NCBI GenBank assembly: GCA_965649765.1
Contig: OZ287757.1
Span: forward strand, 27,342,001 to 27,406,000
Direction: 5' to 3'
Length of the DNA: 64,000 nucleotides
Source: Bispira polyomma
Lineage: Eukaryota
Shown here: piece after piece, positions 1-62,972 of the stretch
Numbering within the stretch: position 1 is the first letter of the stretch
How the letters are laid out: each line of letters starts with the position of its first letter
Notes under the pieces: model-generated
Seen by the model: the letters and a program-made list of their open reading frames with translations, nothing else
Databases searched by the model: none
What the model was told of the DNA's origin: nothing
Position numbers and translations under genes: made by a program

Positions 1-1084
1 AGAGAAAAGAGATTACCAAGGATTCAAATGGTATTTATAGCTAAAAGAAGGTTTATTTATTTGAATTTTCTAAATTCACATGAACCATTCATCCAGGCTG
101 TGTATTCACAAAGATTATTATTATTCTTAATTTTTTTTTGTCGGTCAATTTCAATGGCCACAAATACTGCTTGCAGAAAACTGATTGACAATGCAAATTC
201 CAAGACCTGCTAAGAATGTTTGAATAAACCACCCTTGGATGAGAACCGTAAACTGGGTCTATTGTTTCAATCACTGCCAACGGAACATATTGCCAACTAC
301 TGTCACTTAACTAAATATTTTTTCTGCTTCATGTTTATTAGTGGCTCTTTTGACGATGTAAGAACTTAGAACTGTATGCAATATAGTAATAATATATTAA
401 ACTAGATTTTACACCTTTCTAAATATGATTTTGACGCTAATTCTGTATGGTAACAACTCTGTACTTCTTTATTAGTTTGCCGTGAATTTTAAATATATTG
501 GGGCTTTTGAGACTGTTTTGTGTTATATTTGACATATAGAAGCACCATGATTACATCTTAGAAGTGGAGTCATATTTTTTAATATACACCACACGGGTAG
601 TTTTACTATTATACTTCACAACTGATGGACTGTATTTTTCCCAAAAATTTTTTTGGGCTATTCCGGGGCACCCGCTGTCAAAAGAAAAGAATATATAAAT
701 TGAGACTCATTATTAATTTATCATCATGAATATTTTTACAAGTCCAAGCTGACACATATTATGGTAGATATTTACCTCCGAAAAAATCTCTTTTTCTCTG
801 TAAGGTTTACACAGAGTAAGTAGTAACTAAGAAATATATTTGTAAATACTGTATTATTGTTTATAAAGTGTATTTTATTGGGTGTAAAAACATGTACGTG
901 TTAAACAACGTCCTGTAGCTCTAAGACACACACCACCGTCATACAATTCTAGATGTAAAAAATTAATATTGCATACAATTTCATCTCTTGTAGGATATTG
1001 CTTGCAAGCCTGCTGTACTAGGTTAGAATTTGGATATTTAACGTCCACTCTAGTACCTTTTAGTAGGTTATATTGGGACGGCTG

Positions 1085-1118
<34 letters not shown>

Positions 1119-4100
1119 TTTGTTATATAGCACTGTATATATGTCGCATTAATAGTGCAAAATGACATCTAATCCAAGTATATTACAAGTTCAGATCATG
1201 AGTACTACAAAGTACATTCTAGTCCCCGAGAAATTGATTTATCATATTGTAAACAACATACACAAGTATATCACGAGAGATAACACCCCCATACAAATCT
1301 TGAAAATTTGAGGACTTTTTGTTCTGCAATTCCTGGTAAGAAGCCACAACAGTCAGCTGAGGATTCCAATTTAATTGGTGTTTAACATGACCTTTTTACA
1401 TTTATGTGATATATGAAGACAGGCAGTTTACAGAAAACAAGCACAGATTGGCTGCCCAAGAAATCTGGGCTGGTATTCATAAAAAGTCTCAAACTCAAAC
1501 TCAATCTCAAACTTAAATATAATCCTAATATATAGGTTATAAAACCTATATTTGAGCTTCTACTCAAACTCAAATTAAATACCTATTCTTAAAGAAGCCT
1601 ATGCTCAAACTCAAACTTAAACTCACTTATAATCCCTAAAAATAGGGATTATATTTAAGTCTGCAAAGTAGGTGAACTTAAATATTTAAGTTTTGTCAAG
1701 ATGGCTTCCCTTATGACAGAAGATATTGTGTATGAGAGGGCATTTCGTAGGGAAAGGGTGTTTAGGGACAGATTGAATCCACTGGATACTTTAACTGACG
1801 AAGAACTTTACCGTAGTTACATTTCACAAGACAGGGTATATATTTTCTTGTTGATTTTTTAAATGAACACTTCTGCAGGGGGACTAATAGGAACCACTCA
1901 GTGTCAGACTCTCTAGTTTTACTAACAGGACTGAATTTTTATTCAAATGGCTGTTTCCAAAGGGTAACAGCAGATTGCAGGGATTTGAACGTGTCGCAGG
2001 CCATTGTTAGCCGCTGTGTTAATTCTGTCACCGATGGCTTAGTCCAACACAGACAATCATCAAATTTCCCACAGAACAGGGGAAAATACGACATGAACAG
2101 CAACAGTTTTTTAATATGAAGGGCATTCCTAGCATTGTTGGCCTAGTGGATGGTACCCATGTCAAGATACAGAGGCCAACACAGAATGGGGACCATTACG
2201 TGAACAGACATGGGTACCATTCTGTCAATGTACAAGTCGTTTGTGAGTCGTCGAAATTTAACATCACTAATTTAGTTGCTAAATGGCCCGGGTGTGTACA
2301 TGATTCCGTAATTCTGAGGGAATCAGAATTGTCTTGGTCATTTGTTGATTATCTTAACTTGATAGACTATTTACCGGTGTTTTAAACTTCATCAATTTCA
2401 CATAACTAGGTCATTTTAAGTATTCTTATAATACATATGGATGTACTGTTATATCCAGTAAATTTCCATGTGAATTCCATAGAAAAGTTATGTTGTGTAC
2501 TGAATTTGTTTTGTACAGTACATCAACATAAATTTATGAAGGAATATTTTGTTAGGCTGATTCTGTATGTTTTATAACAACAGACCACTTCATGAAACAA
2601 GGTATTTCATTGGGTAAAAGTTATCTCAGTCTCAAACTCAAACTCATTCTTATACTTATGTAGGAATGAGTTTGAGAATACCAATTTAAGCATATACTTA
2701 CGTAGGACAATATCTGAGTTTGAGATTATATTTAAGATTGAGTTTGAGTTTAGGATTTTTTATGAATACCAGCCCAGTTATTCACTGACAACAACCCACG
2801 ACTACAGAGGGGGAATTGAGTTGTATACATCACTTTCAACTGCTTCATATTATGATGACCAGTTTTCATTGTGGAAGAAACCATTGACACCAGTATACGG
2901 CAAGTACTTGACAAACTTTCCCACATGAAGGATCAAATAACATTAAGTCCACATTGGTGGTGTATAATACATATACATAATGACTTGAATGACCAATCCA
3001 AATGGCAATTCTCTTGTTATTGGAGCTTTTATCGAGTGGCTACCTAAGGAACCTTAGGGACATTGATAGAAGGTCGGCCACAAGCCTATTACTGCAGCCT
3101 TCATTGTAAACCACATACACACCAAAATGAAGCCTTAATCCTTAATAAATAACTAATTCAAACATTTAATGTCAAAATATTTATTGGCCCAGTCAGTAAC
3201 ATAATTGCTTATGAACACAAAGGGACCTAGGTTTGATCCCGGAAGACACATATGCAGATACATAATGGCTCAGATGACCAATCAAAATGTAAGTTCTCTG
3301 TCATTGGGTCTTTTATCCAGTGTCCGGTAAAGAACCTTAGGAATATTGACAGAAGGTTATTTTCAAGCCTCTGCCTTCAGTTACAGGAATGGCAGTGACT
3401 GGTGCTGATTGACTGTATTTGGACAGTCATGAAAATGTACATTAGCGCCATGAGTATGAATATGAATACAAATTAGGGTGTAATCTATGTTGACTAATAA
3501 GTGATTTTGACAAACTGAGCTTCCTCTAACAATTGATTTGATGAATAGGATATGGGCAATACCAAACGTTTTGTACCCAACTTTACAAAATGTATCCAGC
3601 ACCTTTCGTCAATTGAAAAGGAAGGTGATTGTCCATACATTGACAGTCTAGAGGGAGATAAAAAATACCCTTTAAAAACATTGTGGTTTGTGAGTTACAG
3701 AAGTCCTGGTTGTAATGGGTATGCCATTTGTTTCGCAAGGAATCTTTTAAAAAATTCTGCCAGGCTGATCAGCCAATACAAATCTTTGTACAATTGCTCC
3801 ATTTTTTCTATATGAATACAAAAAGTACTTGCGCCACAATAAATGGATTAAAAAATATCAGCAAAAGATTTATATGCCCAAAGATATCTTTGCTTTTATA
3901 TTATCACCAAAGCAATTTCAGTAATCAAACTTATTGATCACTATTGTGCAAATTATAGGTGACCCATGCAGGAATATAAGGAATGCAAAAGTCACAAGCA
4001 GAACACCAATAGGCAAGTATAATAATAGTTATCAACACAATATTTTAACACACATCTTAATATTTTATAAGAACTATGGGTCTGTGGGGCAGGTATTGCT

Positions 4101-7100
4101 TGCCTATCAATAGAGAGATAACACCCCTTATAAATATTGAAAGAATTTAGACCAATTACTATTCTGCAATTCTATAATACAGTTAAATGTTGATCGAAAA
4201 ATATCAGAGCAGGATTTTTATTTAGTTAGGATTTTTAGAATTACTTTTAAAACTTGTGTGTTATGATGATGGATAGTTTACAGGTCAAGCTGGTCAACAT
4301 ATCTTTACTCTAAACAACTGGCCTTCAACAAATCCACTACCAACTTTCCACATACAACCTGAGTCCGATATTTGAACCCACAACTACAGATTTGGGCCTT
4401 AGTTAGGTTGTACCTCGCTTTTAACAGTGATTGGCCAGATTTAATGGTGGAAGAAACTTGGTCGAAGCACTGTAAACCATCTATGTAGGGAAGTACCTGA
4501 CAAATTCAAACCTATAGTGGTCATGGACCAGTGATTGTTAAGCAAGTGCATCTAACCAATATGCCATTGAGTCCCCCACACCACTTAATAAGTTTGTAGT
4601 ATCATCACAGCTCAATTTAGAATTCACTTAAATTTTTGGTCTCTTTTGGTTTGATCTGTTTACTTATTCTGGATAAGTAGATTGTCAAAGAAAGTCCTGT
4701 TGTAACATTAAATGAATAAAATATTCGTCGTTATCCATGTAATTTTCAAGGTTCTATTCACTTAAGATTAAGTGGTTCTAATCCTGATTGGCAAATATTT
4801 GCAATTTTGCCTTAGTGGTACCAATTTTTTTTTGTTTCCAGATGTGTTTTTTAAATGGCGGAAATTCTTCAAAAAAATTGCAATTTAAATTGACATTTTT
4901 AAGTAATTGAGCACACATAATTACATAAAATGCTAAAAAATACAGCAGTAAACATCAATATGATAGAATTATACAGATTTTATGGAGACAAGTTACAACA
5001 CAGAAGCTCTTGTATCTGACACCCAGCTAAAGTAAGGGAAAACACAAATGTAAATATCGTTTAATCTGCTAGGTGATTAGGTGCCGCAGGTGTCGGGCTT
5101 TCACCCCAGAGTGTCACATTAAGCTAAACACCAAAGCTACTATTTTGAGGCATAAGGCAATATCAGGTTAATATACAAATTTACATAAATGTACAGATTC
5201 CAACCCGTGTTTCTATCACAATTGAACATTTCATAAAGAAACATCATAAGCCTCGGGCCCATGGGAGAAAGGTTATACTTGACATGATTATCCAATTTAT
5301 TTTGCTGTGAATGGTATTCACTTAACTATTTCTAGTCAGTTACTATGCATATTAACCAGGGCTAGTCTCGTTTACACCTATTATACATGCTAGTCATGGG
5401 TATATTTTGAAATTCTTACCAAGGTTTAAATTTCAAACTATTTTATAATTTGCCTTTATATATATTACTAATATGTACAGAATAAATTCTGCAAACAAAT
5501 CTTTTACTGTCTTCTCAAGGTCACAAACCTGTAGCCTAGCATAACTTTTATATATTTAACTTGTTACTGTAACACATCACTAATATTAAAGATAACTGTA
5601 TCAGTTTAGTGCACACACAGTACATACCACCGAATGTTAATTGCATAATTAATCAGGTATCATAGTAATATTCTTTTCTATTTTTCTTTGTATGTTTAAA
5701 TGTTTTCATTTTTAAAATGGCCTTATCTTTAAGTCTTTAAAAATAAAATGCACACTTCAAAACAAATGTAAAATAATATGCAACTTCATTAACCGTAACA
5801 GTAAAAATGAACCAAATCAATTGTTGTCATATTCTCTTATATAGCACAAGCCTCGTTTTACCAAAGTATGGACAGCAGCTCAACAGAAGACTCTGTTTTA
5901 CCATCAATGTCGAGAGGAAGCAGACATTCCGTGCAAATCAGAAGTATGTCATTTTCTGGTGAAGGTTGCAAAGGATTCATTTCCCATTTTTTTGATAAAA
6001 ATATAAGAATTAAAATTCACATTTACAAGTAGTGTAAAGCAAAATTAGCACACATAATTGCATAAATGCTGTAAAATACAGCAGTGTGCATAAATATGCA
6101 AGAATGTTACTGATTATTTAGCACAAAGTCCCCAAAGCCAGAGTTAAGATTTTGAGCTTAGAGACAGGTGTTATATTGATACTGCCAAAGTAAACATTTA
6201 AACAAATTAACAGTAATGTTCAGTTATGGTTAATTTGTGTTTGTCGGAGAACTGAAAAACTTATATATTTCACATTTTGTTATTATCATGTTCAAGTGAA
6301 AATAATTTGATGTGGATTATATAAAAACTAGTAATTCTACTTTTTAATGTCAAAATAGTCTATATTATTGTCTATTATTTTTACTATCTAACCTATACTT
6401 TTATCTAGAATTGTATGTAAATTTAATCTAAATAGTTTGATACTTCCTGTTTTGCATAGAACCTGACAAAACTACCTTTTCAATGCCAGAGAAGACAAAT
6501 GAAGAACTCATTGCAATGCAGGATATTGACATCACAGGCGGAGGTATTTATTCAGTTCCAAAGTTCAATGTAATGCTGTCTGTTCCTCCATTGGAAGAAA
6601 CAACTCAAATACAACTTGCTAGCGAGGCTTGGAAAAACAATTCTCAGAATCCAATGACTAATGTCTATATATTACGTCCACATGGAACAATTTTCTCTGA
6701 CTACATATTGGTTTGTATTCCACTTGGCACTGAGTTGATGGAATCAGGAAATATTGAATTAATCTATAGTTGCACAGATATTGATGAAGAACCAGAATGG
6801 ATGAATCTGCAGCCTAATAATCTTGATGCTACACACAGGGATGAGATCTTCTGGATTCTTAACAAAGATCAAGTTTTTGTATTTACCAAACATTTCTGTC
6901 ATGTGTTTTTAACAAACTGCAGTGGGCTACTCAAGCAACCTGCTCTGTACCTAACAGCGTCAGTTTTTTACCAGTACCTACATCACATATCTCAAATAAA
7001 ATTCTCTGTTGGATTTCACTGTGGTAAATGCTATCCAGAACTGCTAGAATCTTCTGTAAGTAGATGATGCATTTCACTAATGACTAACTGGGGTTATTAA

Positions 7101-10100
7101 ATCACTATTGCTTCAATATGTATAAATGATAATAACTATAGTATTGATAAGTATCAATAATAGTTTCACACTGATTTAATTCTGGCCGATTGTCTGGAAC
7201 TTGTATCACTTGATTTAGGTAAAAATTAAATGTGAATGATTCTTCTTTGCATTGACGCTTTTATTTAATTTTTAAAATTTTTATTGTATTGAAACATTTA
7301 AACTGTAGCCAAAAGTAGAAATTTGTGTACAATATAAAAGTTCAGAGCTCGCAAATCTGATACACGACGAACATTGAGAACTAATCATATTTACAAAAGT
7401 TAAAAAAATGGTTTATATTTTCAGTAATGCCTGTGCTTCAATTAAAATGAATAAATTCAGCTCAACCCATGTGTTCCAATGTATTTGAATTCTTAAAACT
7501 TCAGCAAAATCAATTGTATGGTTATTTTTTTACAGACCAGTAGAGGTGCTCTGATGGACTACTGTTGTAAATGTATCTATGGAAAGGAAACTGCAGTAGT
7601 GATAAATGTGGATATGACTAATAAAGGCTGGAACAGTTTATCTTCTGAAGCGGTAATTGTTATCAATACTATAATTATTATGGTTATATCACTTTACAGT
7701 CGATTAAAAAATCATTATGTCAGAGCAGTTAAATTATAATAAAAAATTCTATTTCAAGATTACAAGGTTTTCGTCACTATGTTCATGTTCAAAACATCTT
7801 AAACAATACATTGAAAACATTAAGACCGAAAAATTTTAGACCAGATTTGGGTACATTCACTATATACTAATAGACAATTATCAAATATGTACATGTAGTG
7901 GTTCGGAAGACCACTTTAAATGGTGATTCTCTGTCATTGCTTCCTATCCCCAGTGGCAGGCTAAATAAGTTAAGGGACGCTGATACACAGTCATCCTCAA
8001 GCCTCCTTATTCAGTTAGAGTTACAGGTACTGGTTGTAAATGTCAGTCAAAAAAGGTTAATTACCAAATTATTTTGACCATGTCATAAAATAAGCCCATT
8101 GCCATATGTATTACTTTCAATAAGTTTTAATCTTATAACCAAGTCAGTGGAATTTGTATGTATAGCTCAGGGGCCGAATTTACTAAAGATCCAACAGTTT
8201 GAAGGAGTGTAGTTTTCAATGTATAACTGCTTAGTTTTGATGATATCAAAATGACACGAAAAGTTGTATTAGCATGAAAGCTAGACTAGTGACTATAACT
8301 TTCTTTATATCATATTATTCTATAGACTGCTTCAAAGCCAATGATATTATTTAGAAAAAATATTTCCTTGGTTAACGCTGACACCATCACCATTAAACAG
8401 ATTTAAATTCCGGCATTTGTTACACCTGGAACCTATGTCTACCAAGAACAAGTAGGGTTCTGCTAATTCAGTTCAATAGTTCACTCATATTTCAACCCAT
8501 AGGGAATGAACACAACACTAGAATCACTTGTCATGAAATGTTTTGAAGATTATTATAATAACGACTATGCATTTGAGTTCGGCTGGGTCCACGGTTCACA
8601 GGCCATTTCAAGGCGTTTCTGATGTCATAGCCTATGAAATAGACCGATTGGTAGATTCAATATTCTGTTATATTGATGACTACATTGGAATATATCCAGT
8701 CGACGAGGACAATTTATCTATCGTTATACTTAAGGAATATATGGCTGTTCTCAGCCAGATATTATATTTCTCTTAAAGTGCAACATTTTAGGGGTGCAAA
8801 GAATGTTATAGCAGATTACCTTTCAAGAATCTACTCTGACCATTCCACTACTTTGGAACATCATAACATGCTTTATAATAGGTTTACCTAGAGACACATT
8901 ACACTGCATTACTTTAATATCAACCTCACTGTATAGTTGAAGGTGCATCCACTGTCACTCAACAGCTCATGAATTCAGCTTTGGAAAGACTTAACACTGC
9001 TCTGCGAGCTAAAACTACATCAGCATACATCAATCAGTTTAAGAAATTTATAACATTCAATTGCTTTGCTGGTATTCAGGTTACACAGAGATCTCATCTC
9101 ATAAGCATGTGACATTCTTTCTGACACTATTATTCTATTATTCTCTTTGTACAGTATCTTTGCATTTCCAATATTGCACCCTATTCTAGGGCCACATTTG
9201 ATTCCTCACGTCACTTTCTGAAAAAAACATTATATTCGGCCCAACAGGGGCACATGTCATTTCAAAATGGGCAAAAAATCTTTAAGACGGATCTCAATCT
9301 CACATAACTCCAATCTCTGCTTTACAGAATAAGATACTTTGCCTGTTCAGGACTATACAAAAACTTCTTGTCTCTAGGCCCCTTCATGAATCTCCACCAC
9401 AATTTGCACACTTTCATACTCCCAATCATACAGTTATAGATACTCATGTTCGATCTGCTTTCTCCTCGGTGTTAACTCATAGGGATTCCACATAAATCTT
9501 AGACTTCTCCTACCTTTAAACAATAATGTATCCCTACAAAAAATTATGTCACATGGACTGTGGAGATCCTCAACAGTCTGGACTTATCTCCAGAAAACAC
9601 CAAAAGCAGCTTCCAGTCAATTTTGCCTCCTACATCCATTCTCAACTTTAGTTTTGGGTTTTGGATGTTTTAAAATTCTATACATTTTAAATATTTAACT
9701 TTTTAATATTAAACCTGTATCATAGATTTGTAACATGTACAAAATAAAATCCTCAAAACTTAGTTATACTCTCATGTCATTTACCTCTTCACATACACAT
9801 GATCTTTACCTTCACCTCATACATTCACACTAGTGAACATGTAGGGTTCTGATAATTCAGTTCAATAGTTCACTCATATCTTAACCCTAGGGAATAAACA
9901 CAACACTATAATTCACTTACCATTTAATAACTAATCACATCATTTGCCCTCTGTTCTAGCACCATATACAATATGGGGTCAATTATATTGAAATCACACT
10001 CTGATAAAGCAACACAAAGGAAAATTGCCCACCTCTTCCGCATTATCCAATCTTATTAACGAATTGCTGAATAATTTATGAATTTGACATAAGGGATCAT

Positions 10101-12652
10101 GTCAATCAATCTGACTGGCCTGACTTTATTTTCCTCGCTTACAATAGGAGATTGTTAGTATAGCAGACTCCATTGTTTATAAATTATATTTGAGGTCGTT
10201 ATTGAATAACAGAAGTGGTCTGTGGTGTGTGTTTTAGTGACTTCAGCTATCTGTAACCTATTACCCGAAAAATTTCCTTCAGTTCCAGGTGATAGTATTA
10301 TCTTGTGCTCGAAAAGGTTAAGTATTAAGAGCCTCTTTAATAGCAGTGAATATCTCTTGGTATTGGCATGTGAGTAGTGAAACAATTCAAATAACAAAAA
10401 CTGTTTATTGGATACAACATCGTTTGCTACAATGAAGACCTCAAAAGTTATCTATTTGGCTCTTTTTAAGTAATCTCTAATTTGTGATATGTTCAGTCTT
10501 AGCAATGGCTTCTATAAATGATATGCACATTTGACCATATATATAAGTGGATCCATTGTTTAAGTCCGTTTCTTCTCATTAAGTGACCACAGCCATTTAA
10601 AATGTTTGAATGGATTAAAGTGTGAAGCTTTGGATGGGCAATCCTGAAGAAAATATATAAGTCTTGTGATGAGATAAGCAATGGTCTGGTTAGATATCAT
10701 GCATCTTTATGTCCTGTTGATTCATCATGCAAACGAGGTATAATCTTGAAAGTTTACAACTGTCATACTTTGTGTACTCCTACGTAGACAGTCCCTTATG
10801 TTTTACTTTTAATTGGTAGATAGTCATAGATAGATATCGGTACATCTCAGTTGTGGGTTCAAAAGAAGTCAAGGGTACTTGCTTTTCTCAGGACTATTTG
10901 TAGTAATTTGGTGGTGTATACCATATTTTATACTTTTTTCGTTTAACAGATATTTACTCAGAGCACATATGAAGATTATTTCCAACCTATATTTTCACAT
11001 AATCCGAACCTAAAGGCCAAAGTAAAGCGAACATGCTGATATGCTAACAAAAGCTGCCCAGATAACATGTCAGAATATCAGTGATACAATTTCTGAACTG
11101 ATCTCATTTCTGTTTTAAGTAGAATTGTATAATACTGTGTATCCAGATTTTGATGATGTTACAACTATATTTAGATGGAAAAAATAACCAAAGTTAGTCA
11201 ATACCTACTGTAATCAACGGGGGCTCTCCAGTCAGTAATGGCTGTATTTATGAGTTATGGTTTTCTTAATTGATAATTACAACTGCACATTTATACATTT
11301 ATACATGGCTCATTCAGCAACTTTACTTATGCTTGTATTGTAGAGGGTTGACGCTACTGACTTGCTGAATTTGTGCCAAATAAACCAGATTTACCCTCCT
11401 ACCATGTTCACATTCAGTTGGCTGGGCAGTGGCGATGTCACTAAAGGTGAATTATCTAATACTGTCATAACCTTCAGACAAGGGCACAGAAATTCCAGAA
11501 TAGAAGGTTCACTGCAGGTATGGTACATCCTCTTTTTATCCCAAAAATACAATTTTATTAACTATTTTAACTCTAAATGTAGACTTTTCCATTGTTTTAT
11601 GTCAAATTGCATCTTCTGTAATATGAACATTCTATTATGTGACGTACAAAGTTCCAAGATATTTGATAGTATCCATATATGTACTAGATTGCATTGTCTG
11701 TGTTTCACAGATGAACAACTGTGTTCAAAGAAAAAAAGCACAGATATATGCAAGACATGCCACAGAACATCCATACCCTGTTGAACATGTTGACCTACGA
11801 GCATCTGAAAGCACACAGGCGAGTATACATGTACCAACTGAATTTCATACAACACCGATTCAAGATATAACTTGTACACTAACACAACCTGAAATACCAA
11901 GCATCACCAAAACTTCAGTGAAGCAGCCAGGATTACATTCTGCTGCAGTTAGTAGTGAACCTTATCTCGATATAAGCATCAGTCAAGCAAGAGTATCTCC
12001 AACTGGTGCGGAAGAAAGTGAAGATGAAACAGAGTTAAAATGTGTAACAAACAGCATTCCAACTCATGCTACTGAACTATGTGAAGGTGAGACACATTTA
12101 AAAAGTATAGCAGAATCAAGGGTCAGTCCAACAAGAGGATCCCTGGACAGTGAAACATATTTAGAAAGTGCAACAGACAAACCTCCTACTAGTGCTGATG
12201 AAAATGCTAATGTAACTTCTTTGGAAAGTGTGATAGAAACCCCTCATGCAACACAGCAAGTGTTAGGCGGGGCCAGACCCAAAACTGCTACATGTTCTGA
12301 GGGGACTACTGTCTCTGTTGAAAAGCTGGATGTTGATGCTATTTTTAGTGTGTCACTCAAGGAGGAAGAGAAATATCTTTGTGAATTACTCAATAAAAAC
12401 ATAAGATGTTTAATAACTATTTTAGTTGATCAAGGTTTTGATGGTAGCCACTTGTCACAGAAAAATACTAATGGTATCATTTTCTTAAGGATTTGGAAGA
12501 TGCTGGTCGTGCAAAAACAAACAACCTGGCCTAAATTACATGCCTGTTTACTGCAAGCAGGCATGAAAAAAGCTGCACAAACATTAAAAAATGTCTACCA
12601 GAAAAATCTCAAGATAAAGTTATCAGAGGTGAACGAAAAGTATGCAAATTAA
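1..12652 (+). CDS. Gene A: UNC5CL/ZUD-like ZU5-UPA-death-domain protein, 5'-partial, spliced (exons 1-30, 994-1021, 5845-5943, 6460-7055, 7536-7652, 10950-11021, 11344-11517, 11711-12652; 685 aa in window)
   Basis: All internal exons are AG/GT bounded and join in one open frame (intron phases 0,1,1,0,0,0,0). ZU5 motifs ITGGGIYSVPKFNVMLSVPP, RPHGTIFSDYILVCIP and TKHFC; C-terminal death-fold-like segment ending FLRIWK..TTWPKLHACLLQAGMKKAAQTL. The small exons are less certain than the large ones. Confidence 0.8.
994..1021 (+). CDS. Gene A 28-nt micro-exon (DIACKPAVL)
   Basis: ctcttgtag acceptor, gttaga donor. Same length, phase and upstream intron as the gene C exon at 62945-62972. Confidence 0.6.
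1027..1082 (-). mobile_element. 3' fragment of tRNA-derived SINE
   Basis: aatttggatatttaacgtccactctagtacc...aggttatattggga matches the 3' end of the SINE copies at 42292-42487 and 50301-50562. Confidence 0.7.
1088..1116. repeat. (TA)n microsatellite
   Basis: Direct inspection. Confidence 0.95.
1465..2777 (+). mobile_element. Internally deleted PIF/Harbinger DNA transposon in a gene A intron
   Basis: TIRs ctgggctggtattcataaaaa / tttttatgaataccagcccag with subterminal aaactc/gagttt arrays; encloses a transposase fragment. Confidence 0.88.
1701..2330 (+). pseudogene. HARBI1-like Harbinger transposase, frameshifted and truncated
   Basis: MASL..RRERVFRDRLNPLD..DEEL N-terminus from 1701; GIPSIVGLVDGTHVKI..YVNRHGYHSVNVQVVC..AKWPGCVHDS..LRES (DDE_Tnp_4-type motifs) in ORF 2116-2385. 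Confidence 0.88.
3185..3380 (+). mobile_element. Old tRNA-derived SINE copy; paralogous copy at ~63270-63460
   Basis: A-box-like tggccccagtcagtaa and B-box-like ggtttgatccc; collinear with 63270-63460. Confidence 0.5.
5845..5943 (+). CDS. Gene A exon (AQASFYQSMDSSSTEDSVLPSMSRGSRHSVQIR)
   Basis: 99-nt phase 1-1 exon, ttatatag/gtatgt, open in the frame required by the ZU5 exon. Confidence 0.7.
6460..7055 (+). CDS. Gene A ZU5-domain exon
   Basis: Overlaps ORF 6483-7067. ZU5 signature GG..V.L.VP, PHG..F...I.V.IP and HFC; tttgcatag acceptor, gtaagt donor. Confidence 0.88.
7536..7652 (+). CDS. Gene A exon (putative UPA region)
   Basis: ttttttacag/gtaatt, 117 nt, phase 0-0, within ORF 7518-7739. 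Confidence 0.75.
8452..9920 (+). mobile_element. Deleted Ngaro-type YR retrotransposon in a gene A intron
   Basis: Direct repeats gtagggttctg.taattcagttcaatagttcactcatat at 8452-8530 and 9841-9920; RT YIDDY, RNase H QHFRGAKNVIADYLSR, YR remnants (SNIAP, HGLWRSSTVWTYL). Confidence 0.85.
10950..11021 (+). CDS. Gene A exon (IFTQSTYEDYFQPIFSHNPNLKAK)
   Basis: Pyrimidine tract plus aacag acceptor, gtaaag donor, 72 nt, phase 0-0, open. Confidence 0.65.
11344..11517 (+). CDS. Gene A exon (putative UPA C-terminal part)
   Basis: ttgtag/gtatgg, 174 nt, phase 0-0, in frame with ORF 11362-11784. An alternative in-frame acceptor exists at 11388. Confidence 0.7.
11711..12652 (+). CDS. Gene A terminal exon: S/T/E-rich linker plus C-terminal death domain
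   Basis: tgtttcacag acceptor, ORF 11639-12652. The last ~95 aa have a death-domain pattern (W...TW.KL..CL...G....A..L). Confidence 0.85.
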   Translation: MNNCVQRKKAQIYARHATEHPYPVEHVDLRASESTQASIHVPTEFHTTPIQDITCTLTQPEIPSITKTSVKQPGLHSAAVSSEPYLDISISQARVSPTGAEESEDETELKCVTNSIPTHATELCEGETHLKSIAESRVSPTRGSLDSETYLESATDKPPTSADENANVTSLESVIETPHATQQVLGGARPKTATCSEGTTVSVEKLDVDAIFSVSLKEEEKYLCELLNKNIRCLITILVDQGFDGSHLSQKNTNGIIFLRIWKMLVVQKQTTWPKLHACLLQAGMKKAAQTLKNVYQKNLKIKLSEVNEKYAN

Positions 12653-20334: not shown

Positions 20335-20551
20335 AATTTTCATAAAATGGGTGTTTACCCTTGGAATATCGTTTCCAAAATGGAGAATGTGTGAGGGAGT
20401 GCACACGCTAATTCAGGGGGGTCTGTTCACTAATTGGATACATAATTAATTAGGGAAGGAAAATTGTCAAAACAAGAATAGTTTTACAAAAGTGGAAATG
20501 GACAGGAGGGCAACTGAGGCAGCAGTCCCCTAAAGTGGACTGCTGGGCACA
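20335..20551 (-). repeat. Split direct repeat A2
   Basis: 217 bp, about 3 differences versus A1 (25667-25884). Confidence 0.93.
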
Positions 20552-20709
20552 GTTGTCAGGTTGGGTGAAATTGTAAGTTGTGAGGTGACCTTGAGAGATA
20601 AACTACAAGATACCATTTGGAGAATTTATTTATGTACATAAGTTAGTATGTATGTACAGAGTGTAAAAGCAGGTTAAAATTTTTAGGGTAGAAATTTTAA
20701 ATATACCCA
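20552..20709 (-). repeat. Split direct repeat B1
   Basis: Begins just after the YR stop, abuts A2, matches B2. Confidence 0.93.
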
Positions 20710-20716
20710 AACCCAA

Positions 20717-21703
20717 TCAAATAGAGGAAGGGATGATGGAGGAAAAAGTAGCAGGAATGACAGAAGCTGCCTGGGAGGTAGATTGCAAGTAGGTCCATAC
20801 AGCTGAGCTGCACCATAAACCGTGTGACATAATATTTTGAAGAGAAACATTATTGTTGAACGCTAACATAGCGCCAGATCTACGGAAAGTGTGAAATCCA
20901 TGAATTTTGTGATCTATGCCAATATGTTGTAAAATATTCTTGAGAACTGTCCTGATGTGCGAGTCTATAACAGGATGGTGAGGGGAAATTCCTGTAACAA
21001 ATAATGGGTAGTGTTGTGGGAGTTTCCTTGATTCCATTAGTAGTGTGAGTGCTGTCACTGGACTCAGCAAAGGGGTATCAATCTTTGGAACCTGGATTAC
21101 ATGTGAGGAGGACCTATCTTGCATGTTTTTGGCCCACTTGAGGATTATGTGTGCTCCAGGTGGACCAAAAACCACATCCTGTCTAAGGAGGTATCTAGTG
21201 GAGTCAAATTTTAGTCTGGAGTGAGGTGCAATATTTGACATTCGTAAAAAACCATAGAAGGCTAAAAGGAAGATGGCCCTGTAAAGCTGAGGATCGGAAG
21301 AAATGCTGCAAGCCTGTGATATTTGTAGTAGTTGTTTGATCTGAAAAACCCCTTTGACTGCAGGTCTAAAGGAAGAATTCAGAGCAAGACTACGTGTGAA
21401 GAGTGATATAGAGTTGTGCTGGAATACTTGTGTATCCAAGTGGTATTTTTCAGACATGAATTTCAGTGCTGAGATGTAGTTATTTATGACTTTTGGTGAA
21501 ATGTTATTTTGAGCTAAATATTCCAGAAAAGCCAGAATAGAATGTACAGTGATGTTTTGAATTGCAGCATATTGCAAAAAAGCAAGAAATGTTCTAAATT
21601 GACTGACATAAGCTGAGGTAGTTGAAGGTCTCAGAGCTGCATTGATTCTTGAGATGGCTGCTAACCCCAGCTGTTGTGATGAAGCAGTAGCACCTGAAAT
21701 CAT
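20717..21703 (-). CDS. Tyrosine recombinase (integrase) of the Ngaro-type element, 328 aa
   Basis: Catalytic R (GFLRMSN), HxxR (HTFRRSGA), HGLW and Y (VWTYL) all present; the ATG overlaps the pol stop (ATGA). Confidence 0.95.
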   Translation of the reverse strand: MISGATASSQQLGLAAISRINAALRPSTTSAYVSQFRTFLAFLQYAAIQNITVHSILAFLEYLAQNNISPKVINNYISALKFMSEKYHLDTQVFQHNSISLFTRSLALNSSFRPAVKGVFQIKQLLQISQACSISSDPQLYRAIFLLAFYGFLRMSNIAPHSRLKFDSTRYLLRQDVVFGPPGAHIILKWAKNMQDRSSSHVIQVPKIDTPLLSPVTALTLLMESRKLPQHYPLFVTGISPHHPVIDSHIRTVLKNILQHIGIDHKIHGFHTFRRSGAMLAFNNNVSLQNIMSHGLWCSSAVWTYLQSTSQAASVIPATFSSIIPSSI

Positions 21704-25580: not shown

Positions 25581-25666
25581 AGTGTATAACGAGGACTAGA
25601 ATACTTAAAACTCATATAAAAACAAATAAAACTTTAAAAAAAACAACAGTAGATTGAATTAATGTA

Positions 25667-25884
25667 AATTTTCATAAAATGGGTGTTTACCCTTGGAATA
25701 TCTTTTCCAAAAATGGAGAATGTGTGAGGGAGTGCACACGCTAATTCAGGGGGGTCTGTTCACTAATTGGATACATAATTAATTAGGGAAGGAAAATTTT
25801 CAAAACAAGAATAGTTTTACAAAAGTGGAAATGGACAGGAGGGCAACTGAGGCAGCAGTCCCCTAAAGTGGACTGCTGGGCACA
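25667..25884 (-). repeat. Split direct repeat A1 (5' end of the element)
   Basis: 218 bp match to A2. Confidence 0.93.
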
Positions 25885-35139: not shown

Positions 35140-36745
35140 GGTGATAAAATCAGGACAGGGCTTTTGATCAAGATTTCTGTTCATCAAACCACCTGCTTTC
35201 AACTCTTCTACTAGTCTACTTTCTAATGCTACCTTCTTACATGTTACGGTTAGTTTCAAAGCCTAACTGTAAATTCAAATTTGTTATCGCAACACCACTA
35301 AAGCCCCTACTGCACAATATGATATTAAAGATAATTATAAACAATTTGGCATTCTGGTTGGGGTTTCTTCTGAGTGATCAAACTGAGCAGAATTCCAACT
35401 CAATACCTGATTGGTTGAAGCATAACATAACTAGGTTCATAGATATATGACTGAAAAAGCATATAATACACTTGGAAGGTATGTTTCAAAACATTACACA
35501 TCAATTGCAGATCAAAAATACATTCATTACAGATCAATTAAGTATATGGAATTGTTTAGCCATTCTTGTGTTCAATCTAATTATAGTAATGGTTGTTACT
35601 GTATGTAAATGTAAGTCTTTGGCTTTGAAAAATGATACAACTTTAAACAGTGATTTTATCTCTGCAGGGGTTGCAGCAGGTTTTGCTATTTAGTGTAGTG
35701 TAATTAGAGTATATATTAAAGGTTACAGATAAGAAATTGCTGTGACAACCCTAGCTAATGTTAATTCAACCCATTATATGGACCTTATTATGTTAAATCA
35801 GTCGCTGGAATAAAACCAATTGAATTAGATGTATGTAGGAAACAGGATTTCTTGATTTTCCACAAAGACATAGCTAATTAAAATATTATTGGAAACACTA
35901 CTATAGCCTAATTGGTAAAACAATCATTTAAAGCAAACATAATACCTTGGTTTTATCCCATCCTGGGGTTCCCAGCTAGGTGTAGATACACTGTTCTTAA
36001 TAGTAGAAGCTGAAATTAAGGGGTTTCTTTTTCTAAATGTTTAACCTCAAAGGTCATGAAGCTACAAGGGTGAAGCATAAACAGAGTGAAGTCTGACCAC
36101 AGTCCAAATATCCAGTTATGAATTAAGGTAATATAAGAATTTTGATCTTGAAGGTCGAATTTAAAAAGTTAAATAGTCAGCTATAAAATCAGGTAATACA
36201 GAAGAATGAAATTACTACTCTTGTAGTGGCTATGGGATCTCCACTACTGCCTAAAAGGATTTAGCTTTGATTGATTGATTTGAATTTGATTGATCAGTTA
36301 GTGATCAGTCAACTTGAGTAATTTGTTTATAAAATAGTGTAAGAAGGATAGAATTATATGAAATGAAATGCTATACACCTTTGGGGCTGTATCACCACTG
36401 GTGGCCTTAAAATGTCAGTCCGCTGCTTTCATTGGTGACAGGTTTGCATATGTTGGTAAACTCAAGTGCATGACTCCCTAGCTTGCTGATAGACAGCTGG
36501 GTGCATGCATTCATGCAGTGAAAAAAACCTAATTACCACAGACACCAAACAAATTTGTTAAACTGTTAATATGTCTCAATGTTTTCTGTAAAAGATGTAC
36601 ATAACATATTCTCCTTTTTTAACTAATCTATGATTTTTGTGTCAGATACTTACCGAAATGGATTCATCCAGGCCATACGATGACATGAATGTGACATCTG
36701 TGAAACCCACCTTATTTTCTATGACAAAAGGTACTTAGCTATATT
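35140..36745 (+). repeat. Segmental duplication: 5' region of gene B, paralogous to ~54520-56225 (gene C)
   Basis: Collinear anchors ttgatcaagatttctgttca, aaatgtaagtctttgg, aaggggtttcttttt, agttagtgatcagtc, acaccaaacaaatttgttaa, ggtacttagc. Confidence 0.85.
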
Positions 36746-39681
36746 CTTTTGAAATAGTATGTATAATGTATACACTAAATTTTCGTTTTAACATTTGCAG
36801 TTATACACTGTAAAGGTTTATTTTAAACTATCAATTAGAAATTAATATGCAGTAAAATTTTAAAAAACCTAAACTTTCCTACACAAATATTTACACATAG
36901 AAGTTAATTTTTTCCAAAAATTCATGTTGATTAGTTGTAGGCATGCTTGTTCTACTTCATCGCATAAGTCATAAATTGTTAGGTGTAACGTCAATCTTAT
37001 TTAGTTTAATATTTGATTCGAGTTGTAGATCCTTCCAGAGACAACACATTAATAGCAGATATAACCTTTGTGATAGTAAATGGATTTGTATTATTCCCGA
37101 TTGTATGTGTCATTGTCAGAAAGAGACGCAAACTCTGGAGGTTTTTAACACGTCATCGGAGAGCTTCAGAAGACAGGTAAATGGATATGGGCTAAATAGA
37201 ATTTAAGAGGTATTACTGTAAATATACAGACAGTATTAATTATCACACACGCACAGTGAATGTCCACATGAACATATACCTCAGGTCATCAATACATATA
37301 CAAAAACTTAGCACACAATATTGAGCAGTTCTAGGACACTTTTGGGGTAAACATGAAGCACTACAATGTAGACTGATTCTCTGTTAACATCCCTGATTAC
37401 AAATAATGTTTGTAGGCATTTTTATTAATTGTCTGTGCTTCGTATATACAGGCATAAAAACTCCTGTAAATATAAAAAAATATATATATATATATTAATA
37501 AAAGTGAAATAAAATGATTGCCTAATTGCAGTACAGTTCCAGTATATATGGAGAAATAAACAGCATAAATAATCAAACAATAACAAAAAATAGAGTCAAA
37601 CCTAATGTAAATGTAAACGGTGTAATTTCATTGAACAAACATAAATTAATATGCAATAAATGTGATATATTGTGAGCTTTGAACTGTATATAAATTTTTC
37701 AGCTGTCCCTAAAATTATAATATAAATGTAACATTTGTGGTTTTATTTCTGTGCAACAAAGAATAAAGCCATTGTGTGTAATAAATCCTAATAATATATT
37801 AAAAATTTGAAGTAAATATAATTAATAAGGGAGATATGACATTTTTATATGTATATACAATTTTTGTATGTTTGAATTAAAAGTAATTCCATACTGAGAG
37901 TTACTTAAGTTTTGATAATTCTGCGGTGTGCATCTGCAGGCCTCCACTGCTGATAGATGATTCTTATCATCCTGTGATTACAAAAGGATCATCAAGTGGC
38001 TATTTGAACGAGGTAAGAACTTACAGCTCTCTATATGGTTAATTAAAATTAACTAATTATTTAATATCTACTTCAATAGTACTATTGTTGTAATAATATT
38101 TAGGGTTTATTTTAGGTTCCTGGTAAGTTATTGTTTTTCACAGTGGGCACCTCAGGACCTGGTTCTAATCAAACTGTTTTACATCCAATCACATATATCT
38201 GGACTGGGTTCTCAATATTCACAATGTCTATTTATATTCTGATAAGGTGTACATATGGGTCACGGTTCAGAATTCATTTTGTATTATTTATCAATTGATG
38301 AAAGATGTAGCTATTACTTTTTTTCCCTATTAACGTGCTATTGCCATTTTTTTAAATGGTTATAAAACAGCACGGGAAGAAGTGTTGGAATATTTAGTAT
38401 TGACGGTCAGTTTGTGGTTAATTATCATGTTGTTAGGGCAAGTTTGAAATATGATTGAGTTTTTAGTATGATAGTTTGCTTAATGAATTTATATTGATAA
38501 TTTAGAGAAGACAAATCATAGCTAATTTCTGTCTTGATGTGAAGTATTAATGTGTACTATTATGGGTAAATTATGGCTGGTCCTTGTCGTATGTAACACT
38601 ATGTATGTATGTTTTCCATTGTATGACTGGTCCTTCTTTTGACATGTCTGATTATTTAGGCTTTAAAATTTTAGTAAAAAAAAGATCACAAGGGATCAGA
38701 CCTGTAGGTTTACTTAGTTTATGTACTAAATTCATACGAACCATTAATTCGAGATGTGTATTCACAAAGATCATTACTATTACTATTTTCAAATTTGTAC
38801 CTCAACCACAATTGTATGTGTTTTTCGCTACAAATACTGCTTCAAGGCAATATTTTGGCTGTGATAGTTCCAAGACCTGCCAGTTAAGAATGTTTGGCAG
38901 TAAGCCATTCTTAGATAAAAACAATAACATCAGTCCATTGTTTCAAAAACAGTCTCTATTAAATGGGCAAACAAAATGAAAACTTTGGAATATATTTTGA
39001 CCTACGACTGTCACTTAAGTAAATCGAAGAATGTTTTAGTGTAGTTATTTTAACAAAATACATTAAAATATATGTTTATTTTGTTTTTGAAGTGATAATC
39101 ACCACAAATCAAGATTGATCATTATTATTAGTACTATATTAAAAGTATTAAATAAATGGTATGCAATTTGTTACTCAGATGATGAATCTTTATGTGGATG
39201 AAGATGAGGCTATGGCACCTGACTATTCCAGACCTGTACGTTTACTTATTTTATTTACTGAATTCATAAGAGACCATTCATCCTGGATGTGTATTCACAA
39301 AGATCATTACTATTACTATTTCCAAATTTGTAGCTCAGCCACAATTGTATGTTTTATTCGCTACAAATATTGCTTCAAGGGAACTTTTTGGCTATGAAAA
39401 TTCTAAGACCTGTCAGTCCGTTGTTTCAATAACTACCAAAAGTATATGTTGTTAAATCTTCCTATGGATGAAGTTAAGGCTGTGGCATATGAGCCTTCCA
39501 GTACAGACACTGTAAGAACTTGGGACTCTTCATTTTATCTAAAAGTAAAATTAACTAATTTTGAGATAAAAAGAAAAAATCAATAAAGTTTTAGATAAAT
39601 AGTATAAAATTTATTATTCAGATGATGGAATATGAAATTGCTCTCCATTTGGTTAAATTAGTAAAATTAACTAATTATTGA
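36658..39681 (+). CDS. Gene B: single-pass type III membrane protein with short Tyr-containing tail (exons 36658-36730, 37029-37176, 37940-38012, 39179-39235; tentatively 39443-39511 and 39622-39681)
   Basis: Phase-consistent AG/GT exons give MDSSRPYDDMNVTS..DITFVIVNGFVLFPIVCVIVRKRRKLW..DDSYHPV..GYLNEMMNLYVDEDE..DYSRP. Exon 1 is paralogous to gene C exon 1. The 3' end is uncertain. Confidence 0.62.
38035..38290 (+). repeat. Internal duplication in gene B, second copy ~39650-39905
   Basis: cagtggg.acctcaggacctggtt ... tgtacatatgggtcacggttcagaattcattttgtattat present twice. Confidence 0.85.
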
Positions 39682-40769
39682 TTATCTACAATAATAGTAC
39701 TAATGTGGCTAAAATAATATTCAGGGTTTATTTGAAGTTCCTGCTAAGTTATTACTTTTTACAGTGGGTACCTCAGGACCTGGTTTTAACTTAACTGTTT
39801 TAGATCCAGGTAATATATCTGGACTGGGTTCTTAATACCCATGCCTATTTGTATTCCAACAATGTGTACATATGGGTCACGGTTCAGAATTCATTTTGTA
39901 TTATATATATTTATAATGGAAGGTGTGGGGACAAGGTGGGTCAGTTACTTGTATGGAGCCTTAGCACAAGTATGGAAGGGCTACAAAGTGTTTGTTCAGC
40001 ATTTTGACTAGGTAACTGATAACGTTTATTTGTTCACATTTTATTTATGTTTTCTAAAGTTATTATTGGCCACTTCTGATGGTCCAGCAGCATATTTAGT
40101 AAACTTTCTACCAGACAATCATTGACAACTTCCTGTCCTTCAGCATCAGGATTTGTCAGAGAGTACATGGTCCACATTGACAACTGCCTCAGATTTATTC
40201 CAGGGACTATGTTCACGAAAATGCTTACACACTACCATCCTTACAATAATTACTATGCATGTTTAGCCCATGTATTTTCACCAAAAAGCACACCTGCTGA
40301 TGCAAAATTGCAGGTATAGTTCAAAATCAATTTAGCGCTACTAAAAGGGACGTAATATATGTAAAATTGGTTTCTAATTACGGTGGTAATTATAAAATCC
40401 ATTTTAAAATACGTTTTGAATTACTGGGAGTAAGGTAAGGCAGGATTAATTTTAAAAACCTAGTTATAATACCTGAAAACCAGATGAAAGACTAAAATTG
40501 TAAATGGGAAAACCTGTAGTCATTGGTTTGGTCCCAGTTGACAACTACTAAAAACATGTAAAATATAATAAGACAGCCATGGCAGCTAGCACATATTATG
40601 TTTTCTTACTTAAGAATCTAATCTAATCACAATATTAGTGTTTCAAAAGCAGCAGATGAATGAAGCAACACAAATGCTCTATATCTAATTTTGAACAACA
40701 ATTGAGTTAAATGAATTTTTATGGACATCGGAGCCATCACTGTTGAATGTCCACGCTTGTAAACACAGT

Positions 40770-56144: not shown

Positions 56145-59100
56145 ATGGATTTGTCCACACGATACAATGACATGAATGACACGTCCTTGACAACCAATTC
56201 TACAATAGCGGGTACTTAGCCATATTCATTTTAAATTGTTTATAGTTTAATAATGTGTACGATGTATTTAACTTTAGGTTCATTCCGAACTACCAAAAAG
56301 CCATTTTTTCAATAACCATGCAAAAAAATTAATGTGCCTGTAACTATTTTTCCACCTTGTCTCATAATTATAAATGGATAGGTGTAACCTATATTTCCTA
56401 CATCAGCACTAAGCTATCTCCAATGTGTTTATACCTTATACTAAGCAATATCCACAATTATAACAATTGTGTTGTTTATTATTATTATTAGTTTTAGCTG
56501 ATTCATCAGTCAGCTCATTCCCAGTTATAATTGTTGCGACAGTATGTGGACTTCTACTACTCGTGTTTGCTATACTATGTGTCACTACACATTATTGGAG
56601 AGCCAGAGAAGACAGGGGAGTGGATATGGAGCTAATAGAAAATGTATGGAGCTTATAGATTTACATGTTAATTAAGAAGGCCTTCTTTTTTTAATTACTA
56701 AACTCATACAAACCATTCATCCGGCTGTGTATGCACAATGATTAACATTCTAAATTTTTTATCTCAACCAATTTCTTTGGCTCCAAGGGATACGATTGGC
56801 TATGAAAATTCTAGAAATGCAAGCTACCCTTGTGAATAAACTACCCTTGGATGAGAACAATAACCATTGTCTATTGTTTCAATAATTGCCATCCATATCT
56901 GTTGTTAAATAAACAACCAAGTATTTTTAATATATTGACAACCACTGTCACTTTAGGGCTGATGGGCCCGTCCCACTTTTCTAACCTTGTTGCATTTTTG
57001 GTGTGATGTAGTTGTTATTCTGTGATCGCAGCTGGTCACCTGCCAATAATGTAACCTCTCTCCCAAATATGGTAAGATAGTGCTCATAAGCAATCTCAAT
57101 TTGACCATATTTGGACCATTGTATGATCAATTGCGAATCAGAGCAATCCAACTACATTCTTTGCAAATGCTGTGAGGTAACTTACATGCTGGTTGTTCGC
57201 AATCAATTACGACCATTTGCAACTGTATTACGACCAATTACAATGACTGTGCATTCCCTAATGGAACCAGTATGTGCACTGTACAACAATTGCGGTCTCA
57301 GTTGATTATTTGGGAAGGTACCAAAACCTCTTATCTGGATCTCCAGTTAGTGTGATTATCATCACGATCCTAGCATGCGTACAGGTAAAAAAAATGATCA
57401 AATCTAGGTTACTTTTAAAGGACTTAAAACTCTGACCATTGAGTTATTGTTTGTTGGTCTATTGATGGTAACACAATTAACTGTTAGCTTAATATCTGAA
57501 TGCTGCTGACAGGCTGGAATTTCTGACGCGTATGTGGGACGAGTGCTTTGGTTCTACGCTGCCTTTATATGATCAGTATGAGCATCTGATGGCCTTGGAG
57601 GACATAATAGCTTTCAATGAATTTGTTAGGGTCCACCCAGATATATTTCAGGAGCTGGGGGATCATTTGGTGCACAGGATTGAGAGGGCAAACACTTTCA
57701 TTTACAGGTTTATTGAACTAGCCTGCAGACTGGCCATCACCTTTAAACATCTGGTAATTAATATAAATCCATTATGTTTAGCTTCTGCATGGCTGCCGAC
57801 ACCATCTCTAACATAGTAGATCAGTGGAAGGTTGTTAGATTGGCCGTCAGATAGGCTAGATAGTTTGCTTCTCGCTGGAATTTCCAAACATTGAGGCTAG
57901 TAATGAAAGCATGTAGCCATCAGGTGTCGTAATAACAGGAGGTCACTACTATAATTAAAAAGGTTTCATTATACTCGTGGCACTGGTGGATGTGGACTAT
58001 ACGTTTATATTGGTGGATTCCCAGTTTATTAATGCCTGCCAACTGAAAGAGGCCATTAAAGATTAAAGGCACTATTAGCTTCGCCCCTGATGAGTTCCTA
58101 TTCAGGGATAACAAGCCCATGCCTTACTTCATAGTTATACTCTTTATAGTTTGACTGCGGAAATAATGTATTAAGCCAGTTCAAGATAAACACTCGCCGT
58201 AGGTTATCAAGGACCAGGATAATGGTCGAAAATGTATTTTGAGATTTTGGTCTACAGATTTGGCTGTCTCTTGACCACAAATAAGACCCAGACAGCTTGC
58301 CTGCTGCACACTGCGTCACTTAATAAAGACCATATACCCAGGGAGCCAAGCAGGTCCACTGGATCTGAATAATGCCAATCATTGTCTCATCCCTGGGCAT
58401 GGGGTCAGGGACTAGAATTACCAAACGTGGGCCAACAGGACAGTACCAAAATGGATTCTACAACTCCCCTCAGGATCAGTGCTATGACAGGACCAGATGA
58501 TCAGATGAGACATATTTATCACTGGTCCTTTCCAGGGGCAACATATGTGCCAGGGCCGTGCCTAGTGCCGTGGAGGCCCTTAAGAAAGGGGTCTACAGGT
58601 GTTGCATGCTAGTTATACTCATCAACGTGTGGTACTGTTGTGGTGGCTGTAGTTGTAGTACCGGGTTTGTGTTGTTGTGCCTGGCTGCTACTGTGGCTGT
58701 GGTTTAGGCTGCAGTGTTTTGTATGACAGCTACTGCGTGGGCTTTATTACCACCTGTTGAGAAGGAGGCCCATGACACCAGGCTGCTACTGGTGCTCGTG
58801 CTGATACACCACTTCACTCTCCTGCCCAAACTGGTTGTAGGTGGTAGTCATTGTGCTCTCAAAGCGGTTCTAAATGTTGGTATGTATATCCTTGTGAGTA
58901 CCAGCAGTCAGCTACAACCCCTATAAACTCTGCTGAATGTGTGGTAAGGAACTGGGTTGGCTGTTGTTGCTATTTTATCATCTGCAGCAGGTCTCCCTCT
59001 CTGGCACCTTTCTGGCGAGGGTGAGGACTTGGGTGCAGGAGTCTGGGTCCAGATTCCGCTGAGAGGGCTACATCGACTATCAACCTCCATAGCCTCAATG

Positions 59101-62100: not shown

Positions 62101-62972
62101 GTACCAAGAAGCTACCACTACAAAGAAGCCGCTACAATCAAAGCCCAAAATTTAAAGACCGTGAGTTTTAAATTTAAAGACTGGAGTTGACGGAGAAATG
62201 GGGAATAATCCTGAAGAATTGGCTACCAACTAGGGTGATTTTTGGATTTGCCTTGCTGTGCACTCCCAAAACACCACTGTTGGACCTGTGTATTACACTT
62301 CACATCTTTTGACTGTATTTTTGCGTCCAACTTCATAGATATTTACCTCAGAAAAAATATTTTTATCTTTTTAAGGTTTACACAGAGTAAGTAATATAAC
62401 TAACAAATATATTTGTAAATAAGTGTAATAAAAACATTTATTACGCATTGCACTACGTATCACACTCGATGATATATCATCAAACAGTGTCCCTCAAAAT
62501 GTATGTAAAAACTGGAAAAAATAGATATCTTAAAAAATATTCTGGTGAATATAAATTCTTACACCTTTCTAATTATTATGGTGACAACTGTTTTGCTTCA
62601 AACTTGCATTGTTACGTCTCAATCGACAGAAGGTTTACTATTTTAGGGTTTTTGGGGATATTTGTTCTTATAATTTGTTCAATTGTAAGAATGTTAATGA
62701 TAAAATATAGTGTGTAATAAAAGTAAACTTCTGTTGTGTATTTTAAAATTATATTACTCAAGAAGACAACATACTTACAAAATTCCCTGTCTTCTTTTGT
62801 TATATAATTTAATCATACACATCACTTGTGTAGTTTTACTATTGTACCACGTCCTGTAGCTCTAACATATTGAACACACAAACCTCACCATGACACAATT
62901 CCATATGTAAAAATTCATATTTCATACAATTTTATCTCTTGTAGAAAATTGATGAGGAGGCTTTGGCAGCAG
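56145..62972 (+). CDS. Gene C: 5' part of an UNC5CL-like paralog (exons 56145-56211, 56498-56643, 62945-62972; probably continues beyond the window)
   Basis: MDLSTRYNDMNDTSLTTNSTIAADSSVSSFPVIIVATVCGLLLLVFAILCVTTHYWRAREDRGVDMELIEN|KIDEEALAA. Introns are collinear with gene A introns (56690-56950 with 50-310; 62340-63120 with 770-1250; 63230-63750 with 3150-3690). Confidence 0.7.
57490..58330 (+). pseudogene. Decayed PIF/Harbinger transposase in a gene C intron
   Basis: F..FVRVHPDIFQEL..RIER.NT..RLAIT; YYN*KGFIILVALVDVDYTFILVD; RLSRTRIMVENVF*. Element ends not resolved (~56960-60250). Confidence 0.75.
60528..62106. repeat. Three-copy tandem repeat (601, 480 and 498 bp units)
   Basis: Units start actcaagatatcccgaggaag at 60528, 61129 and 61609; near-identical apart from indels. 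Confidence 0.95.

Follow-up and report, generated by a model that had tools for sequence, protein, structure and literature searches.

To our knowledge, protease-tripwire sensing through a ZU5 self-cleavage module has been proven only for vertebrate NLRP1 and CARD8. In these proteins a disordered, positively selected segment ahead of ZU5 serves as the tripwire, according to PMC10249858. Two genes, here called A and C, in a 64,000-nucleotide window of Bispira polyomma (the whole stretch of DNA analysed, G000:C10:27342001-27406000) resemble this system, as PMC10249858 and PMC3210808 present it, in that a fast-evolving segment lies N-terminal to a putative ZU5 cleavage site and the output is probably a death fold. 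CARD8 and NLRP1 are soluble and carry SF|S and a CARD, and both protease sensing and positive selection at the level of sites are proven for them, whereas A and C are predicted to be membrane-anchored, are known from sequence, and give a suggestive signal of selection. Membership in the CARD8/NLRP1 family is rejected, as A and C have a TM helix and an H-F-C motif and gave no CARD match.

In layout the predicted A and C proteins are UNC5CL-like, a likeness of architecture. They share with UNC5CL, a vertebrate TM-ZU5-UPA-death domain protein (PMC10084454 and PMC7883297), a single TM, the lack of an Ig/TSP ectodomain, an autoproteolysis-type motif in ZU5 and, probably, a C-terminal death fold. 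Unlike UNC5CL, they have H-F-C, a multi-exon variable juxtamembrane linker and a 200-aa low-complexity stretch, and they occur as tandem duplicates. The UNC5CL motif is H-F-S. Assignment to the netrin receptor UNC5 is rejected, the ectodomain being about 30 aa in all three gene models, with no Ig or TSP1. PIDD1, as described in PMC3210808 and PMC7883297, offers a further parallel, since cleavage at HF|nucleophile after ZU5 releases a UPA-death-domain fragment; unlike A and C, it is described there with LRRs, two ZU5 domains and no TM helix. In the trappins (PMC2831891), the coding exons of duplicated defence paralogs likewise diverge faster than introns and flanks, there across a whole effector exon and many paralogs, whereas here the pattern is limited to two or three copies of short linker exons. 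A search of literature listings and abstract openings returned no description of such invertebrate genes.

The window was compared with itself together with 100 kb on either side (genome size 1.04 Gb). A and C are tandem paralogs that are both predicted to be intact, and a third gene, B, is a 5'-only duplicate. A begins 1.2 kb upstream of the window. All splice junctions in the three genes are inferred from sequence, and the script-spliced models of A (739 aa) and C (756 aa) have open frames and compatible phases. The features are as follows.

1204-1132 nt upstream of the window, + strand: first coding exon of A, predicted splice sites
843-726 nt upstream of the window, + strand: TM exon of A, phase 1>2, predicted splice sites
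1..30, + strand: 3' part of linker exon X of A (starts 42 nt before the window), 73 nt, phase 2>0, predicted splice sites
805..815, + strand: candidate micro-exon m1 of A, 11 nt, identical to m1 of C
943..993, + strand: conserved intron 3' end before Y of A, 45/50 to C
994..1021, + strand: micro-exon Y of A, 28 nt, phase 0>1, reads DIACKPAVL
1023..1080, - strand: truncated SINE fragment, 3' tail end, 58/58 identical to many genomic copies
3165..3637, unstranded: intron block of A collinear with 63251-63712, includes an old dispersed repeat
5845..5943, + strand: linker exon Z of A, 99 nt, phase 1>1
6460..7055, + strand: ZU5 exon of A plus start of the probable UPA, 596 nt, H-F-C motif at 6891-6899
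7536..7652, + strand: exon of A, probable UPA part by position, 89/117 to C, omega ~0.5
11344..11517, + strand: exon of A, probable UPA part by position, 120/174 to C, omega ~0.2
11711..12652, + strand: last exon of A, low-complexity linker, then probable death-fold domain (~12308-12649), stop
36658..36730, + strand: first coding exon of B, 65/73 to A
37029..37176, + strand: TM exon of B, alternative donor after 37140
37940..38012, + strand: linker exon X of B, 73 nt, phase 2>0, as a whole not alignable to X of A beyond chance
56145..56211, + strand: first coding exon of C, sequence model
56498..56643, + strand: TM exon of C, phase 1>0
62376..62386, + strand: candidate micro-exon m1 of C, 11 nt, identical to m1 of A
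62894..62944, + strand: conserved intron 3' end before Y of C, pairs with 943..993 of A
62945..62972, + strand: micro-exon Y of C, 28 nt, phase 0>1, reads KIDEEALAA

Gene B (36658-38012) consists of exon 1, TM and X alone and is without the ZU5 part. The TM exon of C has undergone a 33-nt deletion and is lengthened so that it ends in phase 0; it has neither the basic stop-transfer stretch nor the phase-2 donor seen in A and B, and no exon X follows it; a C counterpart of exon Z was looked for and not found. The ZU5 and later exons of C lie 3.9-12.6 kb past the window end and are the same four 3' exons as in A. A protein search of the contig finds the large (ZU5) exon only in A and C, and a genome search with the Y flank matches only these two genes. 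The same search with exon 1 and TM finds A, B and one broken remnant, C lying below its reach. Contig C1 carries a distant paralog (large exon 39%) with the phase series of A (TM 1>2, 2>0, 0>1, ZU5), and the linkers of A, C and this paralog differ in length and exon number.

A segmental duplication of ~16 kb (92-99% identical) pairs 39927-55897 with DNA 46.3-29.4 kb upstream of the window; it contains the upstream region of C, and the 3' part of B is missing at its edge. Upstream there are also further copies of the promoter alone and a remnant of exon 1 (G000:C10:27272758). B also has internal tandem duplicates of intron pieces at 38026-39930, with more exon-like stretches at 39179-39239 and 39622-39651, which suggests linker-exon duplication. 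An old dispersed repeat makes up the intron end before X (37790-37939; L030 9822-9957). It has matches at four more places in the genome; three of these matches end at about the acceptor position of X, and the acceptor may be repeat-derived.

The A and C proteins are predicted to consist of a short glycosylatable ectodomain, one TM helix, a variable cytoplasmic linker, ZU5, a probable UPA and a probable death fold. A single hydrophobic 19-mer (KD 3.1-3.2) follows a segment of 30-37 aa with N-glycosylation sequons; an additional coding exon may lie upstream of it. By profile and fold, the large exon is predicted to encode a ZU5 beta-sandwich. Its Atlas score for ZU5 is 0.96, and a profile of 16 family sequences matches ankyrin ZU5 (E 1.4e-5). 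Pfam ZU5 is matched by 8/16 family members, A not among them, and the exons of A searched on their own against Pfam matched no relevant family, death domain included. The structure model used, which is alignment-based (pLDDT 78; a single-sequence fold reached only pLDDT 32), resembles ankyrin ZU5 and the UNC5b cytoplasmic domain. Searches for relatives gave 14 homologs, none with a protein name; a word-indexed search for longer proteins gave 0/222 candidates, and pattern scans of metagenome contigs had no match.

At the end of ZU5, the 16-row alignment has F in 16/16 rows, H in 14/16, and C, S or T as the next residue in 16/16; H-F-C itself is present in A, C and the C1 paralog. According to PMC3210808, C, S or T after H-F are the residues that drive ZU5 self-cleavage. 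On this motif, A and C probably cut themselves at H-F|C with Cys as the nucleophile. The domain after H-F-C is a probable UPA, with beta strands and an UNC5b match in the model of the large exon, and UPA-labelled Atlas clusters. A 200-aa low-complexity stretch in A is followed by a C-terminal domain of 114 aa that is a probable death fold (Atlas 0.89 to DED/PYRIN/Death clusters, a lead-level score, with 10/10 in one clan).

In the last exon of C (L032 1730-2180), the linker that leads to the probable death fold contains a run of repeats of ~20 aa, expanded relative to A. Three more ZU5 genes with H-F-C occur in the genome (G000:C1:46515700-46525300; C9:62734700-62740000; C6:41477900). The C1 gene is TM-anchored with a death-like end, the C9 gene has a death-like exon downstream, and the C6 gene has a long Tyr-rich disordered stretch before ZU5.

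An earlier note on this DNA had proposed that the paralogous exons are more diverged than their flanking introns, and several of the counts behind this proposal are reproduced here. The Y exons of A and C (994-1021 and 62945-62972) match at 14/28 positions. The 45/51 given for the preceding intron corresponds to 45/50 paired columns plus one 1-nt gap, or 35/51 without the gap. Long intron stretches do align (3165-3637 and 63251-63712, 70% by BLAST, 338/437 gapless), with an old dispersed repeat inside. Both Y exons are 28 nt long and have phase 0>1, with an open frame along the one path by which TM can be connected to the ZU5 exon in both genes. The general proposal does not hold gene-wide, where seven A-C exon blocks are identical at 1122/1449 positions (77%) and eight non-coding blocks at 1864/2651 (70%). 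Nor do the TM exons of B and C barely align, as had been claimed: their identity is 55/83 (66%), compared with 612/955 (64%) in the upstream non-coding DNA and 137/210 (65%) in the intron. The exons look unalike because C has the 33-nt deletion and a different exon start, and since their identity is no lower than in these non-coding regions, we reject this pair as a sign of selection.

At Y, the extreme value belongs to the flank. No 50-column non-coding window reaches 45 matches (0/2259), and at 0.90 the Y flank is the highest of nine exon-flanking intron stretches compared, the other eight ranging from 0.48 to 0.72; the contrast between exon and flank therefore owes as much to an unusually conserved flank as to a diverged exon. 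The flank is best read as a putative splice-control constraint or as a conversion tract ending at the exon. This bears on a rival explanation that we consider possible but rather doubtful, in which the architecture is the same, the linker is a flexible spacer under relaxed constraint, and the pattern arises from a conserved or gene-converted splice flank combined with small-sample noise. The flank being the stronger outlier agrees with it, as does the finding that 28-column non-coding windows score 14 or less in 9.1% of 2435 overlapping cases, so that about 9% of neutral windows equal the divergence of Y. It sits less well with what is usual for micro-exons (PMC10551640), namely that conservation of the flanks goes together with conservation of the exon.

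An assembly artefact is rejected. The sequencing runs listed for 5800-7800 are three from one study (kind not on record, DNA-like), with no RNA run among them, which has no bearing on expression. Three of three give one contig across Y of A, extending 26-29 nt into the SINE (below the 31 letters required for a bridge), and one across Y of C, each with no difference from the assembly; no allele appears among the matches listed, and the assembly may itself have been built from these runs.

The donor of Y in A is bordered by the SINE fragment, 58 nt long, which starts at 1023 inside the GT donor, supplies its T, and has an 8-nt direct repeat on either side; judged by its sequence, this insertion is young. 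Other copies of the family have target duplications of 10-16 nt (10/18 copies), so the last 5-7 bases of Y in A may derive either from the target or from the tail of the SINE. That Y of A and Y of C are in exact 28-nt register speaks for the target. As the cause of the low Y identity the SINE is rejected, since the identity is 10/21 without the last 7 nt.

The candidate micro-exon m1 (805-815 and 62376-62386) is identical over its 11 nt in A and C, has a GTAAGT donor, and lies in a block of 76/84 (90%). By splice scores that rest on approximate metazoan frequencies, it is the top-scoring candidate exon in the 7-kb interval of A, above Y; candidates of this kind have a background density of 0.05 per kb. 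Its inclusion in the main path (X+Y in A) breaks the frame in both genes, and m1 may for that reason be a poison exon, a class of micro-exon described in PMC10551640. In A, m1 may also replace X+Y as a short-linker alternative. The C intron ahead of m1 contains a tandem repeat at 60528-62106, with ~480-nt units that are 92-98% identical.

These observations define a very unlikely explanation in which Y of A does not function as an exon, the SINE having remade its end. A would then join TM or X to m1 and m1 to Z, and a live exon would have been compared with a dead one. The insertion inside the donor with its flanking repeat would fit, as would the higher score of m1 in A, which alone converts phase 2 to 1, and the stop that ends Y when it is read in phase 2. 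However, drift in a dead exon would not outrun the neutral rate, the flank at the acceptor retains 90% identity, Y of A agrees with Y of C in length and AG|G register, and C cannot use m1 in frame.

The earlier note attributed the divergence of Y to diversifying selection on the juxtamembrane cytoplasmic region. This claim is supported in part. Its location stands: the region is the linker described above and the least constrained part of the protein, the N-terminal omega being 0.9-1.3 and that of the core 0.37-0.46. The N-terminal part changes at a near-neutral or faster rate, and the core is under purifying selection. In pairwise counts between A and C, dN/dS is 0.37-0.46 for the core and 1.1-1.3 for exon 1, TM and Y together; in a codon model with shared distance, omega is 0.39 for the core (p<0.0001), 0.50 for exon 1 and 0.91 for TM. 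For Y the maximum-likelihood omega is 3.5, with p=0.011 uncorrected and ~0.08 allowing for seven exons, on nine codons picked post hoc for looking divergent in two full paralogs. Selection over the whole region does not follow: the N-terminal region pooled fits omega=1 (omega 0.92, p=0.67), TM+Y gives 1.2 (p=0.44), and gene-wide, dN/dS lies below 1 with exon identity above intron identity, which speaks against the earlier note at that scale.

The changes in Y are ~13 replacement to 1 silent, distributed 6/5/3 over codon positions (Fisher p=0.03), and in the conserved core 3/412 overlapping nine-codon windows have at least 14 differences. The pooled omega of 0.92 is what a relaxed spacer would give, and linker change consists mostly of indels, exon loss and donor shifts, which also suits that reading. 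Against it, the replacement rate of Y exceeds every neutral estimate tried (p 0.0001-0.013 at a neutral distance of 0.30-0.55), and the A-B pair, a comparison outside the data of the earlier note and previously untested, points in the same direction as A-C.

Between A and B, non-coding DNA is 79-87% identical and the TM exon 79%, with a TM omega of 1.8-2.0 (p=0.15-0.23; fixing the neutral distance at 0.15 gives 0.01, and at 0.25 it gives 0.5); a branch-wise TM excess is not significant. Relaxation is expected in B because it is truncated. Exon X is unalignable as a whole between A and B immediately after an intron of 86% identity; it matches at 28/61, and 0/3166 non-coding windows are that low. 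As codon-for-codon homologs the 73-nt X exons are rejected, their global score being no better than that of shuffles (P=0.27). X has been reshuffled by indels and rearrangement, and its one significant piece is read in different frames in the two genes. The high-identity tract ends at the acceptor of X in A-B and at the acceptor of Y in A-C, a pattern that would follow from homogenisation of the intron, or splice constraint on it, together with exon divergence that is either favoured or tolerated. We hold positive selection on the linker exons to be evenly poised.

Our best explanation, held tentatively and at somewhat less than an even chance, is that Y is part of the cytoplasmic linker of self-cleaving TM-ZU5-death-fold paralogs whose linker exons diversify as bait, cleavage releasing the signalling half. 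Bait is the best single functional reading because the variable linker occupies the same position as the CARD8/NLRP1 tripwire, and the ZU5 domain with H-F-C gives the bait idea a concrete mechanism that the earlier note had not named. The protein would cut itself at F|C and the two halves would stay together at the membrane; a pathogen protease would then cut the linker, the ZU5-bearing piece would be degraded, and the freed UPA-death-fold piece would signal. That A and C follow this CARD8/NLRP1-like logic, which is proposed by analogy, is a doubtful proposition as it stands. Relaxed constraint beside a conserved splice flank accounts for the data almost as well as the bait reading. If the bait reading is true, a membrane-anchored invertebrate version with a micro-exon bait would add a new protein class to effector-triggered immunity; should the linker simply lack constraint, this is an ordinary small UNC5CL-like gene cluster, and splice-site flanks are a poor neutral yardstick.

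The linker could also diversify through different host partners (tyrosine docking motifs, trafficking, TM pairing) and not under pathogen attack, an explanation that we consider improbable. The linkers of A, B and the C1 paralog, like those of two other ZU5 genes, contain short motifs with Tyr, which we take to be tyrosine-based docking motifs, and the TM exon changes between A and B. However, Y has no Tyr in either A or C, the linker of C has almost none, and exon turnover that recurs is less to be expected from a single event of subfunctionalisation.

A bolder form of the bait reading, which we regard as unlikely, is that these are invertebrate membrane-anchored self-cleaving death-fold sensors with swappable linker exons as protease bait under arms-race selection, a convergent membrane-tethered CARD8, with B possibly splicing in frame onto the core of C. 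Exon X of B ends in phase 0, and Y of C starts in phase 0. If this is true, the TM and linker of B on the signalling core of C would provide variable baits on a constant core.

The intron of A also contains an element bounded by inverted repeats (1465-2777) with a broken DDE_Tnp_4 (Harbinger-type) transposase. On the minus strand, 20335-25884 has gag-like, RT/RNase H-like and tyrosine-recombinase-like ORFs with split direct repeats, and by reading of the ORF list this element appears DIRS-like. Remnants of LINE-type endonuclease/RT are found between the genes at 28500-30200 (minus strand) and inside the intron of C (L031 6500-9400).
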